From: Escherichia coli
GTDB lineage: Bacteria > Pseudomonadota > Gammaproteobacteria > Enterobacterales > Enterobacteriaceae
DNA length: 64,000 nucleotides
Assembly (NCBI RefSeq): GCF_044324875.1
Contig: NZ_CP172185.1
Direction: 5' to 3' (one strand)
Shown here: positions 35,397 through 50,640 of the stretch, in pieces
How the letters are laid out: each line of letters starts with the position of its first letter
Position numbering within the stretch: the first letter of the stretch is position 1
Notes under the pieces: generated by a model
Databases searched by the model: none
What the model was told of the DNA's origin: nothing
The model's input: the letters and a program-made list of their open reading frames with translations, nothing else
Translations under genes and position numbers: made by a program

Positions 35397-35606
35397 ATGG
35401 GCAAATTAGGTGAAAACGTTCCGCTTCTTATCGATAAAGCCGTAGATTTCATGGCATCGAGCCAGGCGTTCCGGGAGTATCTGAAAAAACTACCTCCCCG
35501 TAACGCGATTCCGTCCGGAATACCTGATGAAAGCGTGCCGTTATATCTACAACGTCTGGAGTATTATCGTCGGCTTTATCGGCCGAAGCAGGTAGAGGGG
35601 CAGTAA
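35397..35606 (+). CDS. yibT: Small protein YibT
   Basis: 69-aa ORF at the conserved position between yibL and mtlR. Confidence 0.7.
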
Positions 35607-35617
35607 GCAGGCGTTGC

Positions 35618-36205
35618 TTACTTTTGGAAGGCTTTTTTTAAGCTGATTTTGGAAATCAGCTCTGTCAGTGAAAGGACCATTGTTGATCGCACAGCCTGTT
35701 GGTAACGCTGAATTTGCATTGCATACAAACTGGAGTCTGCAGGTTCAAACTGTGGCGGCGGTGGTAACGCCGCCACGCAATGCAGTTCACCAAAGGGTCC
35801 AAGGATTTCGTCGTCGGTAAACGCGTACTCGTTGCCGTCGTGATTTAGCTCTTCACGCAATGCCATCAGTAGCTCCGCATCTTCGTATTCCTGGCGGTTA
35901 ATGACGCCCAACCCGTAAATGAGTTTTAAACGCACAGAAAGATCGCCCAGCGGACCGTCGCCGTCGAGTAACGGTTCTACAGCATACTTCACCGCGTAAT
36001 CGTCTTTGCGGAATACCTGAAGCACCAGAAGATTTACCGCCTCGGTCAAAAGCTCGACGGCGGTGATCAGAAAGCTTCGCACGGTTTTGCCAGCATTCAG
36101 ACGCTCAAGCACACGGTTTTCAAAGGCCTGGGTTTGTTCCATTGTTGCCTGCATATCTGACAATCTGTTATTCGGGCGCAGGGTATCCTGCGCCTGGTCC
36201 ACCAT
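35618..36205 (-). CDS. mtlR: Mannitol operon repressor
   Basis: 195-aa protein immediately downstream of mtlD. Confidence 0.88.
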   Translation of the reverse strand: MVDQAQDTLRPNNRLSDMQATMEQTQAFENRVLERLNAGKTVRSFLITAVELLTEAVNLLVLQVFRKDDYAVKYAVEPLLDGDGPLGDLSVRLKLIYGLGVINRQEYEDAELLMALREELNHDGNEYAFTDDEILGPFGELHCVAALPPPPQFEPADSSLYAMQIQRYQQAVRSTMVLSLTELISKISLKKAFQK

Positions 36206-37353
36206 TATTGCATTGCTTTATAAGCGGTTACCGCCTCGGATACAACCTCGCTGTTGGCATCAAGACCGGAAATCTGTGCCAGCGCCGCCTGCGGACCTTT
36301 GTCAGCGATCAGTGCTGCCAGTTCCTGAGCCTGCGGATCATCTTCACTGCGGAAGTGCATTGCAGCGGCAATACCTTCAATCAGGTTTTTATGTGGCAGA
36401 CCATATTCCAGCGTTCCGAGCAGTGGCTTGATCAGACGGTCGCCAGCACTCAGTTTACGCAGCGGCTGACGGCCTACGCGCTCTACATCATCTTTCAGAT
36501 ACGGGTTCTCGAAACGACCGAGGATTTTCCGGATGTACGCCGCATGTTTGTCTGCGTCAAAGCCGTAGCGCTTGATCAATACTGCACCACTTTCTTCCAT
36601 CGCACCTTTTACCACCGCGCGGATTTTCTCGTCGAGAATAGCGTCACGAATGGTCTGATGACCGGCCAGTTTTCCGAGGTACGCGGTTATAGCATGACCC
36701 GTGTTCAGGGTGAAGAGTTTACGTTCGACAAATGCCATCAGGTTGTCGGTTAACTCCATGCCTGGAATGTTCGGCAACGCGCCTTTGAACTGGGTTTTAT
36801 CAACAATCCATTCGCTGAATGTTTCTACCGTCACTTCCAGCGGATCGTTGGTTGCAGAAGCCGAAGGCGGCACGATGCGGTCAACGGCGGAATCGACAAA
36901 GCCAACGTGTTCTTCTACCCACGCTTTGGCATCTTCCGGCAGGGCGTTCATTACATGGCCTTTCAGCTGCGTGGTGCCGCGTACCATGTTTTCACAGGCG
37001 ATGATGTTCAGCGGGGATTCATTACCTTGTTCTTTACGTTTCACCAGCCCTTTGGCGATTGCCGGGGCAATACGTTCCAGCACAACCGGACCAACGGCGG
37101 TAGTGACTAAATCAACCTGAGCAATCAGATCAACGACATCATCACCAATGCTGCTGACGGCATTGACGCCGGAAACGGTATCTACCTGCTCGGTTTCACC
37201 GACCACATGAACCTGATAGCTATGACGGGCATTCAGGGCATCAAGTACCACCTGATTGACATCGGCAAACGTCAGTTGGATACCCGCGTCTGCCAGCAGT
37301 TTACCGATAAAGCCACGACCGATATTACCTGCGCCAAAATGTAATGCTTTCAT
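36205..37353 (-). CDS. mtlD: Mannitol-1-phosphate 5-dehydrogenase
   Basis: ORF track 5'-overextended; true start [15 protein letters not shown] gives 382 aa. Confidence 0.93.
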
Positions 37354-37392
37354 AGTATTAACCTTCATCAATGTTTTTACCCGAGAGGGCTG

Positions 37393-37575
<183 letters not shown>

Positions 37576-37581
37576 ATTGGA

Positions 37582-39495
37582 TTACTTACGACCTGCCAGC
37601 AGTTCCAGCACTTCATCCACGCTGGTGGTGTGTGCCAGACGCTCGATGACAGACTCATCATCCAGTGCATTGGTCAGGCTGGTGATAACCTGAATGTGCT
37701 CGTTGTTACGGGCAGCAATACCAATCACCAGACGGGCAATGTCATCTTCTTCTTCACCGAAGCGCACGCCTTCCGGGTACTGGCAGAACACCACGCCCGT
37801 TTTCAGTACGCGATCTTTCGCTTCAACCGTACCGTGCGGTACCGCGATGGACTCACCCAGATAAGTCGGGGTCAGTTTTTCACGATCCAGCATCGCCTGA
37901 ACGTATTCCGGCTCAACGTAACCGCCTTTCACCAGCTGCTCGCCAGCAAAACGAATCGCTTCTTCTTTGGTGGCCGCTTTGCGACCGAGGAAGATGTTCT
38001 CCGCGCCCAGTTTGAACAGGTTAGCACTGGAATCGTCAAAGCTGTCTTTCAGACTGTCTTTCACTTTCACTTCGTTTTCAGTATGGCGCTGGGCAGCAAC
38101 CAGACGTTCGGTCAGGCTGGTGTACAGGCCGCTGTCGAGGAAGTTGGTCAGCGAAATATGCTGTGCCTGCGGAACCTGGCGCATAGCGCGTTCGGTCAGG
38201 TCACGGTGAGTGATGACCAGGTCCACATCTGGCGGCAGGTTGTTGATCGCGCTGTTAGTAACAGAAATCTGCGACAGACCTGCATCCTGAATTTTCTTAC
38301 GCAGCACACCTGCGCCCATCGCACTGGAACCCATACCGGCATCACAGGCAACGATGATTTTACGTACGTGGCTCAGGTCGTTAGTCACATCGCCCGCAGA
38401 CAGCGGGGACGCACCTTTAGACTCAGCTTTCATGTCCTGCATACGACGAGTTGCTGCTTCAATATCATCTTCTTCTTTCACTTTGCTGGTTTTCAGCAGA
38501 ATGGCAGAGACAACGAAGGAGACAGCCATCGCCGCACACACACCCGCGATGTTAGCGAAATAAGCACCTTTTGGTGTCATCGCCAGTACAGCAAGGATAG
38601 AACCCGGAGATGCCGGAGAAACCAGACCACCGCCCAGGATAGTCAGCGTGAACACGCCAGTCATACCACCGAGGATAACGGCCAGAATCAGACGCGGATT
38701 CATCAGCACATACGGGAAGTAGATTTCGTGGATACCGCCCAGGAAGTGGATGATTGCCGCACCGCCCGCAGACTGTTTAGCGCTACCACGACCAAAGAAC
38801 ATGTACGCCAGCAGCACGCCCATACCCGGACCTGGGTTAGCTTCAATCAGGAAGAAGATGGATTTACCCAGTTCATGGGACTGCTGAATGCCCAGCGGCG
38901 AGAAGATACCGTGGTTAATGGCGTTGTTGAGGAACAGGATTTTCGCCGGTTCAACAAAGATAGACGCCAGCGGCAGCATGTCATGGACAACCATGAAGTT
39001 AACGCCCGCAGCCAGCATTTTGGACAGGGCTTCAACAATCGGGCCAATGCCGAGGAATGCCAGAATAGCGAGGATCATCCCGATGATGCCTGCGGAGAAG
39101 TTATTCACCAGCATCTCAAAACCGGATTTGATCTTACCGTCTACCCAGCGGTCGAAGTGCTTAATGCACCAGCCACCCAGCGGACCTGCAATCATAGAAC
39201 CGAGGAACATCGGCATGTCTGCGCCGACGATAACGCCCATGGTGGTAATGGCACCGACTACGCCGCCACGTTCGCCGCCTACCAGCTTACCACCGGTATA
39301 ACCGATCAGCAGCGGCAGGAGATAAGTGATCATCGGCCCGACCAGCTTCGCCAGCGTTTCGTTCGGTAACCACCCTGTTGGAATAAATAACGCGGTGATG
39401 ATACCCCACGCGATAAACGCGCCGATATTTGGCATCACCATGTTGCTGAGGAAACGACCAAAGCTTTGCACTTTGATCTTAATATCGGATGACAT
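37582..39495 (-). CDS. mtlA: PTS mannitol-specific EIICBA component
   Basis: 637 aa MSSDIKIKVQSFGRFLSNMVMPNIG matching MtlA. Confidence 0.95.
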   Translation of the reverse strand: MSSDIKIKVQSFGRFLSNMVMPNIGAFIAWGIITALFIPTGWLPNETLAKLVGPMITYLLPLLIGYTGGKLVGGERGGVVGAITTMGVIVGADMPMFLGSMIAGPLGGWCIKHFDRWVDGKIKSGFEMLVNNFSAGIIGMILAILAFLGIGPIVEALSKMLAAGVNFMVVHDMLPLASIFVEPAKILFLNNAINHGIFSPLGIQQSHELGKSIFFLIEANPGPGMGVLLAYMFFGRGSAKQSAGGAAIIHFLGGIHEIYFPYVLMNPRLILAVILGGMTGVFTLTILGGGLVSPASPGSILAVLAMTPKGAYFANIAGVCAAMAVSFVVSAILLKTSKVKEEDDIEAATRRMQDMKAESKGASPLSAGDVTNDLSHVRKIIVACDAGMGSSAMGAGVLRKKIQDAGLSQISVTNSAINNLPPDVDLVITHRDLTERAMRQVPQAQHISLTNFLDSGLYTSLTERLVAAQRHTENEVKVKDSLKDSFDDSSANLFKLGAENIFLGRKAATKEEAIRFAGEQLVKGGYVEPEYVQAMLDREKLTPTYLGESIAVPHGTVEAKDRVLKTGVVFCQYPEGVRFGEEEDDIARLVIGIAARNNEHIQVITSLTNALDDESVIERLAHTTSVDEVLELLAGRK

Positions 39496-39638
39496 AAAAA
39501 CACCCCTTCTTATGTTTGCTGTCGCGCAGGCTGGAAGCCCGAGGTTTTTTGTTAATGTGGCGGCAGAGGTAGCCGGACCTTGTAGATACTGCGAAATCTG
39601 GCACTGAATCGGTTAACTGTCCAGTCGACGGCCTTTTG

Positions 39639-39654
39639 TGTGATATCGGTCACA
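39639..39654. promoter_or_regulatory. CRP binding site (perfect consensus half-sites) in mtlA promoter
   Basis: TGTGA-tatcgg-TCACA. Confidence 0.75.
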
Positions 39655-39755
39655 TAAATATAGGGGGTAGAGAGGTAATTGACGTGATGCTCATCACAAA
39701 ACTATTGTGTAAAAAAGCAACAAGGCGGCGATTTTCGCTAAAAATGGCATTTAAA

Positions 39756-39771
39756 TGTGAGTAATGTCACA
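39756..39771. promoter_or_regulatory. CRP binding site (perfect consensus half-sites) in mtlA promoter
   Basis: TGTGA-gtaatg-TCACA. Confidence 0.75.
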
Positions 39772-39799
39772 TTTTTGTTTTGTTGGTTTGTTGAATCTT

Positions 39800-39815
39800 T
39801 GTGATCTGAATCACA
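39800..39815. promoter_or_regulatory. CRP binding site (perfect consensus half-sites) in mtlA promoter
   Basis: TGTGA-tctgaa-TCACA. Confidence 0.75.
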
Positions 39816-40031
39816 AGATATTTTCTTACGGCGTTCACCTGATGTGATCTACAGCATGTTATGCCCTCGTCATAAAATCGTTATGTAACTAAGCAACTCA
39901 TCACCTCTAAAAATTATTCTTTGGTGTTATGGCGAGAATCGCGAACCCGAATTATTGTCAAAATATCAGCCTGACTCCCTTCTGGCTGCCAGCCAAAAAA
40001 CAACACTGATAAACGTGAATCCGAGGCAGAT

Positions 40032-40394
40032 ATGTTTCTAAACTATTTCGCGTTGGGAGTGCTGATCTTCGTCTTTCTGGTGATTTTTTATGGAATCATC
40101 GCGATACATGACATCCCTTATCTGATTGCCAAAAAGCGCAACCACCCCCATGCCGACGCTATTCATACAGCGGGCTGGGTGAGCCTGTTTACTCTGCATG
40201 TTATCTGGCCGTTTCTGTGGATCTGGGCGACGCTCTATCAACCGGAGCGCGGCTGGGGCATGCAGTCACATGTTGCGTCGCAAGAGAAAGCGACTGACCC
40301 GGAAATCGCCGCACTTTCTGACCGAATTTCCCGGCTGGAGCACCAACTCGCCGCCGAGAAAAAGACTGACTATTCCACGTTCCCGGAGATCTAA
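40032..40394 (+). CDS. yibI: DUF3302-family small inner-membrane protein
   Basis: 120 aa with two predicted TM segments; N-terminal ~78 aa near-identical to the yiaW product in this window. Confidence 0.8.
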
Positions 40395-40396
40395 AT

Positions 40397-41533
40397 ATGG
40401 ATCTATTGATTGTTTTAACTTACGTGGCGCTGGCGTGGGCGGTCTTTAAAATCTTCCGCATTCCGGTGAATCAGTGGACGCTGGCGACGGCGGCGCTGGG
40501 AGGCGTGTTTCTGGTGAGTGGTTTGATTTTGTTGATGAACTACAACCACCCTTACACTTTTACCGCGCAAAAGGCAGTGATAGCGATCCCCATCACGCCA
40601 CAGGTGACGGGAATTGTTACTGAAGTCACCGACAAAAATAATCAGCTTATTCAGAAGGGCGAGGTGCTTTTTAAGCTCGACCCGGTTCGTTACCAGGCGC
40701 GAGTTGACAGACTTCAGGCTGACCTGATGACGGCGACGCATAATATAAAGACGCTGCGCGCGCAGCTCACTGAAGCGCAGGCCAACACCACCCAGGTTTC
40801 AGCGGAGCGCGACCGTCTGTTTAAAAATTATCAACGTTACCTGAAAGGCAGCCAGGCGGCGGTGAATCCGTTCTCGGAACGTGACATCGACGATGCGCGG
40901 CAAAACTTCCTCGCGCAGGACGCGCTGGTGAAAGGCTCGGTGGCGGAGCAGGCGCAGATCCAGAGCCAGCTCGACAGTATGGTTAACGGCGAGCAATCGC
41001 AGATTGTGAGCTTAAGAGCGCAACTTACTGAAGCAAAATATAACCTTGAGCAGACTGTCATTCGCGCACCAAGCAATGGCTACGTTACTCAGGTACTGAT
41101 CCGCCCAGGTACATACGCAGCTGCCTTGCCGCTACGTCCGGTGATGGTTTTCATCCCCGAGCAAAAACGGCAAATTGTCGCCCAATTTCGGCAGAACTCG
41201 CTGTTACGTCTGAAACCCGGCGATGATGCGGAAGTGGTGTTTAACGCGCTACCTGGGCAGGTGTTCCACGGCAAACTGACCAGTATTTTACCTGTCGTGC
41301 CAGGCGGTTCGTATCAGGCGCAAGGGGTATTGCAATCATTAACGGTCGTGCCCGGCACGGACGGTGTGCTGGGAACCATTGAACTGGACCCCAACGATGA
41401 TATCGATGCCTTACCCGACGGCATCTACGCCCAGGTGGCGGTTTACTCCGACCATTTCAGCCATGTTTCGGTGATGCGAAAAGTGCTGCTAAGAATGACC
41501 AGCTGGATGCATTATCTTTATTTGGATCATTGA
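40397..41533 (+). CDS. yibH: HlyD-family membrane-fusion-like protein
   Basis: 378 aa; N-terminal TM anchor, coiled coil, beta-barrel-like C-terminus; paralogue of the yiaV product. Confidence 0.8.
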
Positions 41534-48653: not shown

Positions 48654-48737
48654 GCCTGATGCGACGCTTACGCGTTTTATCATGCCTACGGGGACCTGAC
48701 CGTAGGCCGGATAAGGCGTACACGCCGCATCCGGCAT
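48654..48737. repeat. REP/BIME element downstream of aldB
   Basis: gcctgatgcgacgcttacgcg... and gtaggccggataaggcgtacacgccgcatccggcat REP-like units. Confidence 0.8.
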
Positions 48738-48848
48738 AAACAAAGCGCACGTTGTTACAATTTACGTTTTAAACCTACGTGCGCAATAACCCAATAACCC
48801 AGACTACGCCAACAGAAGTGCGTTTCTGGGGCGTGTTTTGCCAGGAGT

Positions 48849-49174: not shown

Positions 49175-49498
49175 ATGTTCCTGGATTATTTTGCATTGGG
49201 AGTGCTTATTTTTGTATTTCTGGTGATATTCTATGGGATTATTATTTTACATGATGTTCCCTACCTGATTGCTAAAAAACGTAATCATCCACATGCCGAC
49301 GCCATTCATGTTGCTGGTTGGGTAAGTCTTTTTACGTTACATGTTATCTGGCCATTTTTGTGGATTTGGGCCACGCTTTACCGCCCGGAGCGGGGATGGG
49401 GAATGCAAAACCATGACTCCTCCGTTGTGCAACTACAACAGCGTATTGCCGGGCTGGAGAAACAGCTCGCCGACATCAAATCCTCTTCTGCCGAGTAA
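49175..49498 (+). CDS. yiaW: DUF3302-family small inner-membrane protein
   Basis: 107 aa from [11 protein letters not shown]; paralogue of the yibI product. Confidence 0.85.
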
Positions 49499-49503
49499 TA
49501 CTT

Positions 49504-50640
49504 ATGGATTTACTGATTATTTTAACCTATGTGGCTTTCGCATGGGCAATGTTTAAGATCTTCAAAATTCCTGTAAATAAATGGACCATTCCCACAGCGG
49601 CCCTGGGTGGCATATTTATTGTCAGCGGTTTAATTCTGTTAATGAACTATAACCATCCGTATACCTTTAAAGCGCAAAAAGCGGTTATTTCTATTCCTGT
49701 TGTCCCACAGGTGACAGGCGTGGTGATCGAAGTGACGGACAAGAAAAATACGCTGATTAAAAAAGGTGAGGTGCTATTTCGACTGGACCCGACGCGTTAT
49801 CAGGCGCGGGTGGATCGGCTGATGGCGGATATCGTTACCGCAGAACATAAACAGCGGGCGTTGGGCGCAGAGTTAGATGAGATGGCGGCGAATACTCAGC
49901 AGGCAAAGGCCACGCGGGATAAATTCGCTAAAGAGTATCAGCGTTACGCACGCGGCAGTCAGGCGAAAGTAAACCCGTTTTCAGAACGTGATATCGATGT
50001 GGCGCGGCAAAATTATCTGGCACAGGAAGCCTCCGTAAAATCAGCGGCGGCGGAACAAAAACAGATCCTGAGCCAGCTGGATAGCCTGGTGTTGGGTGAA
50101 CATTCTCAAATCGCCAGCCTGAAAGCACAGCTCGCGGAAGCAAAATATAACCTTGAGCAGACGATAGTGCGTGCGCCGAGCGATGGTTATGTGACCCAGG
50201 TACTGATTCGTCCGGGTACCTATGCCGCGTCGCTGCCGCTACGTCCGGTGATGGTGTTTATACCCGATCAGAAACGACAAATCGTGGCGCAGTTCCGTCA
50301 GAACTCCTTGCTGCGACTGGCTCCTGGCGACGATGCGGAAGTGGTGTTTAATGCTCTGCCAGGTAAGGTATTCAGCGGTAAGCTGGCAGCCATTAGTCCA
50401 GCCGTTCCCGGCGGAGCTTATCAGTCGACCGGCACCTTACAGACGTTAAACACAGCGCCGGGTTCAGATGGCGTTATCGCGACCATTGAACTGGATGAGC
50501 ATACTGATTTGAGCGCATTACCAGACGGTATTTACGCCCAGGTGGCGGTCTACTCTGATCATTTCAGCCATGTCTCGGTGATGCGCAAAGTACTGTTACG
50601 CATGACCAGCTGGGTGCATTACCTTTATCTCGATCATTAA
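49504..50640 (+). CDS. yiaV: HlyD-family membrane-fusion-like protein
   Basis: 378 aa; paralogue of the yibH product, with an almost identical C-terminal tail. Confidence 0.85.

Follow-up and report, generated by a model that had tools for sequence, protein, structure and literature searches.

Comparative evidence that the CRP array between mtlA and yibI-yibH in Escherichia coli is the known mtlADR operator-promoter and probably serves mtlA alone

Several near-consensus CRP sites lie between the mannitol transporter gene mtlA and the divergent, little-studied pair yibI-yibH (yibIH) in a 64,000-nucleotide stretch of Escherichia coli DNA (the window, in whose coordinates all positions are given). 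The question raised by this arrangement is whether the sites serve mtlA only or both transcription units. An earlier sequence-only reading had assigned the sites to the mtl promoter and suggested that yibIH, which has no other upstream sequence, may be under catabolite control through them. We conclude, with a probability of about 0.93, that the region is the mtlADR operator-promoter and that, as comparative data suggest, the array is a cis-element of mtlA only and yibI-yibH have a promoter of their own. The genes concerned are as follows.

37582-39495, minus strand: mtlA, PTS mannitol transporter IICBA, 637 aa (open reading frame list and RefSeq annotation of matching E. coli genomes)
40032-40394, plus strand: yibI, DUF3302 protein, 120 aa (open reading frame list and annotation)
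40397-41533, plus strand: yibH, HlyD/CusB-type membrane-fusion protein, 378 aa (open reading frame list and annotation)

This layout agrees with the earlier description. The ATG codons of mtlA (39495, minus strand) and yibI (40032, plus strand) face away from each other across 536 bp, and neither the window nor the K-12 and MG1655 annotation has a gene or other feature within that spacer, which is indeed the only upstream sequence of yibIH. The segment was matched in 5,404 of 5,426 complete E. coli genomes, with 99.9% identity to strain 7/2 and 98.3% to K-12, and mtlA and yibI are annotated under the match. No RNA family was detected in an Rfam search of positions 39400 to 40150 at E-values up to 1. 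In E. coli K-12 ER3413 (L001, 785-2696), mtlA is annotated as a frameshifted pseudogene, which reflects either a real lesion or an assembly error.

An exact search of the whole window for TGTGANNNNNNTCACA (TGTGA-N6-TCACA) returned three matches, all of them within the mtlA/yibI spacer, versus 0.03 expected; at least three matches were reached in none of 100 dinucleotide-preserving shuffles. These three sites (CRP5, CRP3, and CRP2 below) had been reported with correct coordinates and letters, and the partial site that had been placed near 39843 is also present (CRP1). The label "perfect consensus" is accurate for the 10 core positions but does not extend to the 22-bp consensus AAATGTGATCTAGATCACATTT, of which the sites match 12 to 17 positions (17 in CRP3). 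When mismatches were allowed, a strong site missed by the sequence-only reading was recovered (CRP4). The complete array, with centres given relative to the mtlA start, is as follows.

39639-39654: CRP5, TGTGATATCGGTCACA, centre 39646.5 (-58.5), core 10/10
39683-39698: CRP4, CGTGATGCTCATCACA, centre 39690.5 (-102.5), core 9/10
39756-39771: CRP3, TGTGAGTAATGTCACA, centre 39763.5 (-175.5), core 10/10
39800-39815: CRP2, TGTGATCTGAATCACA, centre 39807.5 (-219.5), core 10/10
39843-39858: CRP1, weak, TGTGATCTACAGCATG, centre 39850.5 (-262.5), core 7/10

From CRP5 to CRP1, the centre-to-centre spacings are 44, 73, 44, and 43 bp, so that three adjacent pairs (44, 44, and 43 bp) have the 43- to 46-bp geometry on which the repressor MtlR docks.

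CRP centres in the mtl operator have been reported at -262.5, -219.5, -175.5, -102.5, and -58.5, with spacings of 43, 44, 73, and 44 bp (Lee et al. NAR 2026, PMC13421365). The RegulonDB table reproduced in Shimada 2011 (Table S4) lists five CRP activator sites for mtlADR, and the four compared lie at essentially the same positions, with CRP1 at -261.5. With the mtlA transcription start set at 39588 on the minus strand, as we infer it from CRP5 at -58.5, all five published positions were reproduced exactly. The spacer is 536 bp long in both the window and K-12 and ~98% identical between them; the 11 substitutions in 536 columns fall mostly within the 6-bp spacers of the sites, which read ATCGGT in the window versus ATCAAT in K-12 (CRP5), TGCTCA versus CGTTCA (CRP4), and GTAATG versus GTAGTG (CRP3). 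All five sites of K-12 mtlADR have positions and spacings identical to those in the window, and the -35 and -10 boxes are the same. Given these positions, these spacings, and the near-identity with K-12, the region is the known mtlADR control region, and the sites match the published five-site array of the mtl promoter, as the sequence-only reading had claimed. Nothing that we found contradicts this identification. The sites are therefore already known rather than a new finding, and as a discovery their importance is low: curators have listed the five mtlADR sites for decades, and a mechanistic explanation of the odd spacing followed in 2026. Four further elements lie between the array and the mtlA start codon.

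39618-39623, minus strand: mtlA -35 hexamer TGGACA, placed from the published start and CRP positions
39595-39600, minus strand: mtlA -10 hexamer CAGATT, weak, after a 17-bp spacer, with the start inferred at ~39588
39604-39617, no strand assigned: Cra-like operator CTGAATCGGTTAAC between the mtlA -35 and -10 hexamers, by resemblance only
39496-39588, minus strand: mtlA 5' untranslated leader, ~93 nt, nearly 100% conserved across 47 species

A weak -10 hexamer such as CAGATT is expected here because the promoter is activator dependent. The block at 39604-39617 is almost invariant across genera, and its sequence presumably resembles the Cra consensus. Both Cra and Fis sites exist in the mtl promoter (PMC13421365). 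Between CRP4 and CRP3, the non-CRP sequence TTGTGTAAAAAAGCAAC (39705-39722) is strongly conserved across genera and might be the Fis site of the literature.

The published experiments on the mtl promoter assign different weights to the five sites. CRP is needed for mtl transcription, and chromosomal replacement of CRP2, CRP4, or CRP5 leaves neither mtl expression nor growth on mannitol; CRP2 is thus essential although it lies far from the promoter, while loss of CRP3 has a small effect; CRP1 is not needed for mtl expression and shows poor occupancy in vitro (PMC13421365). MtlR has no DNA-binding domain and supershifts CRP-DNA complexes only if two sites 43 to 46 bp apart are both occupied. The supershift is lost when the spacing is altered, and the malK CRP sites, which at 34 bp apart are not bound by MtlR, gain it when the spacing is lengthened to 44 bp (PMC13421365). 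When mannitol is present, MtlR is captured at the membrane by dephosphorylated EII-Mtl, and HPr is a competitor for the surface involved. By the published mechanism, mtlADR transcription from the weak sigma-70 promoter requires cAMP-CRP bound at CRP2, CRP4, and CRP5, aided by CRP3. Without mannitol, an MtlR dimer docks on two CRP dimers (at CRP4/5, CRP2/3, or CRP1/2) and turns the activator scaffold into a repressing complex, and during mannitol transport dephosphorylated EII-Mtl holds MtlR at the membrane, so that repression is lifted. Comparative data suggest that the array acts in cis on mtlA alone and that yibI-yibH would be transcribed from a weak, probably activator-dependent promoter within the ~125 bp that precede the yibI start codon, ~115 bp away from CRP1, the nearest CRP site and a weak one.

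In CytR-CRP complexes, the repressor is held between two CRP dimers, by which an activator scaffold is made repressing. The MtlR-CRP system resembles CytR-CRP at deoP2 and cdd in that the repressor is recruited through contacts with a pair of CRP dimers bound to DNA a set distance apart; however, CytR carries a DNA-binding domain and has an operator of its own, whereas MtlR has no such domain and reads only the 43- to 46-bp geometry. CRP5, at -58.5, is near the class I position (-61.5 in lac; -41.5 in the class II promoter galP1), but unlike class I and class II promoters, mtlA also needs sites out to -219.5. The spacer as a whole is comparable to that of malE-malK, where several CRP sites likewise lie in a long spacer between divergent units, and this precedent stands behind the idea that yibIH shares the sites. 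In mal, both promoters need the shared nucleoprotein structure and MalT, whereas the mtl array is phased to mtlA only, and yibIH persists without it in other genera.

Binding of CRP to the spacer is well documented. Shimada 2011 describes binding in vitro by genomic SELEX, in which the spacer was represented by 38 clones and was the second most abundant target. CRP ChIP data, to which the sequence-only reading had looked as a check, are also available, with two CRP peaks in the spacer in vivo in enterotoxigenic E. coli (ETEC) H10407 (Haycocks 2015). One of these ChIP-seq peaks was assigned to yibI (Haycocks 2015), an assignment made only because the gene is nearby, and the gene opposite mtlA is counted among predicted CRP targets in Shimada 2011. 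Catabolite control of yibIH is thus an older published prediction and not a new proposal.

A scan for YibI with one genome per species returned 80 loci, and mtlA is divergent from yibIH in 47 distinct species of more than 10 genera, including Escherichia, Citrobacter, Yokenella, Lelliottia, Raoultella, Enterobacter, Leclercia, Huaxiibacter, and the Klebsiella oxytoca group. The phasing of the array toward mtlA was essentially fixed across these species. CRP4 and CRP3 are 73 bp apart and CRP3 and CRP2 44 bp apart in all 47, the full 44/73/44 pattern occurs in 46, and the remaining species has 45 bp between CRP5 and CRP4. The -35 hexamer TGGACA is invariant (47/47), with its centre exactly 26 bp from that of CRP5 in every case, and CAGATT is found exactly at a fixed distance in 43 of the 47. 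Half-sites are conserved and the 6-bp spacers variable, and there is next to no variation in the mtlA leader and core promoter. CRP1, which mtl activation in E. coli does not require, is nevertheless conserved across genera as a weak half-site: 40 of 47 species have a perfect TGTGA as its left half, 42 to 44 bp from CRP2, and its right half is degenerate.

Toward yibI, distances were less constant. The outermost CRP-like site lies 177 to 355 bp from the yibI ATG in the 47 species, and the mtlA/yibI spacer falls into two length classes (~530 to 540 bp and 633 to 665 bp). The longer class, with ~125 bp more, was seen in Enterobacter, Lelliottia, Raoultella, Leclercia, and Huaxiibacter (L023, L025, L027-L030, L032, L034, L042, L044-L047, L054-L057, and L059), where extra AT-rich DNA lies between an ATGGCG block and the yibI start codon; if that block is a promoter, the insertion is inside the presumptive yibI 5' leader. 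An enterobacterial-type YibI (73% identical) also occurs on a 433-bp contig with a coverage of 0.70 in a Myxococcus assembly (NZ_VIFM01000806.1, L039), which is almost certainly a contamination of that assembly.

Natural deletions separate the array from one or the other gene set. At six loci (five from Kluyvera and one from another member of the Enterobacteriaceae), the divergent neighbour of yibI is not mtlA but yibL, the orthologue of window positions 35113-34754 (84% amino acid identity). Homology to the window ends there at 35494 and restarts at 39908, so that these loci have no equivalent of 35495-39907, i.e., of mtlADR and all five CRP sites. Both yibI and yibH are full length (YibH 87 to 91% identical), and the ~125 bp of conserved upstream sequence is kept; within 600 bp upstream of yibI, no CRP site with two or fewer core mismatches was found. 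More broadly, the array is absent from 29 yibIH or yiaWV loci without mtlA (Kluyvera, Buttiauxella, and yiaW-yiaV), where the few CRP-like matches are weak and, except for one at about -17.5 (L060), farther upstream of the start codon than 300 bp. The yiaW-yiaV pair is a paralogue of yibIH located 9 kb away in the window (49175-50640), with products 73% and 77% identical to YibI and YibH, respectively. Its upstream sequence in the window is unrelated and AT rich, with no CRP array, and a REP-like element is located there at about 48700-48745.

The reverse situation, mtlA without yibI, was observed among metagenome contigs. A search with the MtlA protein for mtlA loci lacking yibI gave only Klebsiella and Raoultella clusters, and a DNA-pattern scan of metagenome contigs for the mtlA core promoter gave 80 loci, of which 78 have the same layout of the array. 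Three loci of Klebsiella pneumoniae or Klebsiella variicola (L111, L148, and L160), assigned by exact match to YibF, have lost yibI, and of yibH only pieces covering residues 78-148 and 319-379 remain; these loci nevertheless keep CRP5 to CRP2, along with the CRP1 half-site at +43. All five sites are also kept at an Enterobacter locus without yibIH, in which mtlA is divergent from yibF and CRP1 has two mismatches, and in one further metagenome lineage in which yibI is absent. In the K. pneumoniae complex, traces of the block upstream of yibI can still be made out, and yibI and yibH are both intact in the K. oxytoca group. On contig OKVO01000006.1 (L128), the distance between CRP4 and CRP3 is 75 bp through a longer A-run, the only departure from 73 bp among ~125 loci. 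Since the array is lost with mtlADR and kept without yibIH, it travels with mtlA and not with yibIH. The conservation of a CRP site together with yibIH, which would mark the pair as a regulated target, was not observed.

Upstream of yibI, a single element is conserved, and it is retained in Kluyvera.

39908-39962, plus strand: conserved yibI-proximal block, comprising the A-tract TAAAAAT (39908-39914), ATGGCGAGAAT (39929-39939), a 17-bp gap, and TATTGT (39953-39958)

Between Escherichia and Kluyvera, the two halves and the length of the gap are fixed but not the gap sequence, and judged by this conservation, the block is probably a promoter for yibI or else a site for an activator. As a sigma-70 promoter, the candidate TGGCGA-17-TATTGT within it (39930-39958, start at ~39965) scores 5.1 bits and would place CRP1 at -114.5 and CRP2 at -157.5. 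The highest-scoring candidate in a sigma-70 weight-matrix scan of 39820-40031, at 5.9 bits, is TCTACA-19-TAAAAT (39848-39878, start at ~39885), which overlaps CRP1 and would place CRP1 at -34.5 and CRP2 at -77.5; relative to either candidate start, no CRP site falls at a canonical class I or class II position (-41.5, -61.5, -72, -82.5, or -93). With a median best score of 7.3 bits in shuffled sequence, the scan gave no strong promoter, and an activator is therefore probably needed for yibI. The K-12 form of the second candidate, TCTACA-19-TACAAT, is listed for this spacer in SELEX with RNA polymerase holoenzyme (Shimada 2014), and its -10 hexamer is not conserved outside Escherichia. A third candidate directed toward yibI, TTGACG-18-TATTGT (39679-39708), was dismissed because its -10 box is lost in K-12, and other matches of the promoter scan in the spacer were at chance level. 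Sigma-54, sigma-32, and sigma-E were rejected for the yibI block, as the spacing failed by eye against the consensus sequences, and readings of the block as an ARG box or an NsrR-like site, suggested by arg/met coinduction and by a list of NO candidate genes, were discarded for poor matches.

Two other features were noted in this segment. An inverted repeat, CAGCC-N12-GGCTG (39967-39988), is located downstream of the candidate yibI start, ahead of the ribosome-binding site, and is conserved in 13 of 15 species, with a compensatory change (CAGTC/GACTG) in Raoultella terrigena; it could be a 5' mRNA hairpin or a protein-binding palindrome. An upstream mini-open reading frame of 26 codons, MARIANPNYCQNISLTPFWLPAKKQH (39929-40009), begins at the conserved ATGGCG. 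We rejected it as peptide coding: it has only 4 to 11 codons in Kluyvera, Enterobacter, and Leclercia, and its truncation in three genera indicates that conservation is at the DNA level and that a coding function is unlikely.

Published expression data for yibI fit no simple cAMP-CRP pattern. In a promoter trap in strain UTI89, sorting over five rounds for expression in urine and not in LB yielded two yibI inserts. The first begins 329 bp ahead of the yibI ATG and carries CRP1 to CRP3. The second (colony 68) begins 144 bp ahead of it, contains the conserved block at 39908-39962, and appears to lack all five CRP sites, although its 235-bp "insert sequence" may be a partial read of a longer insert. 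Expression of yibI is induced 5.6-fold in urine, responds early to a heat upshift, rises 268-fold in spinach root exudate, and falls 92-fold in lettuce cell-wall extract, where lacZY is induced. The gene was also among candidates tested for NO-inducible activity, and it was still uncharacterised in a 2024 survey of the y-ome. In the papers covered by our literature search, no expression data on yibI in crp or cya backgrounds were found.

It is possible that the distal sites CRP1 and CRP2 also activate a divergent yibI promoter, so that yibIH is catabolite controlled, and perhaps mannitol controlled through MtlR, together with mtlADR; we consider this unlikely. The two units do share one common 536-bp spacer, and both promoters of divergent pairs are often CRP regulated, according to Shimada 2011. 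A separate ChIP-seq peak covers CRP2/CRP1 in vivo, less than 300 bp from the yibI start, but CRP1 is poorly occupied in vitro (PMC13421365). Conservation of a CRP1 half-site that mtl can dispense with would also fit a role at yibI; however, all five sites, CRP1 included, persist after loss of yibI(H). The distance from CRP2 to the conserved block is fairly stable (118.5 to 126.5 bp in 40 of the 42 loci in which the block was found), but over its full range (100.5 to 126.5 bp) it is not phase-locked, and the distance from the array to the start codon varies as given above. The probable need of yibI for an activator would be met by CRP, yet the candidate promoter in the block puts CRP1 and CRP2 (~-114.5 and ~-157.5) beyond the canonical activating positions, and the 29 loci without mtlA have no CRP-like site within 300 bp, apart from the weak match in L060. 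The apparently CRP-less colony 68 insert survived the urine-not-LB selection, and the 92-fold decrease in yibI occurred where lacZY was induced. The narrower claim that CRP1 and CRP2 couple yibIH to cAMP-CRP and, via MtlR docking, possibly to mannitol availability appears more doubtful still. If it were true, one CRP-MtlR scaffold would control two divergent units, the second from the unusually distant positions of about -115 and -158.

Alternatively, CRP or CRP-MtlR at CRP1/CRP2 could occlude an Escherichia-specific yibI promoter, TCTACA-19-TAAAAT, an explanation that we regard as very improbable. This promoter has the highest sigma-70 score toward yibI, Shimada 2014 gives its K-12 form as the motif for the spacer, the centre of CRP1 would lie at -34.5, and yibI is strongly down under release from catabolite repression. 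However, its score is below the median best of shuffled sequence, its spacer is 19 bp, its -10 hexamer is not conserved beyond Escherichia, and the segment is altogether missing from Kluyvera. Poor occupancy of CRP1 (PMC13421365) weighs against occlusion as well, and the apparently CRP-less trap insert was still selected without this promoter. A functionless chance pile-up of TGTGA and TCACA words in an AT-rich spacer is excluded by the window-wide count and shuffles, by half-sites and spacings conserved in 47 species alongside variable 6-bp spacers, and by published binding and mutagenesis of the mtl sites (PMC13421365).

The array is best read as an element of mtlA alone, and the suggestion that yibIH is catabolite controlled via the shared sites is unsupported by the comparison: the array is phased to mtlA, absent without mtlA, and kept without yibI(H). 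Direct control of yibIH by CRP is unlikely, and we would be surprised by a direct CRP effect of any kind. ChIP-seq and SELEX lists label yibIH a CRP target by proximity, whereas an array that is phase-locked to mtlA, lost with mtlADR, and kept without yibIH makes the pair a poor candidate for the CRP regulon. Expression of yibI is nevertheless strongly regulated, and its own conserved upstream block of ~125 bp is the place to seek the real regulator.
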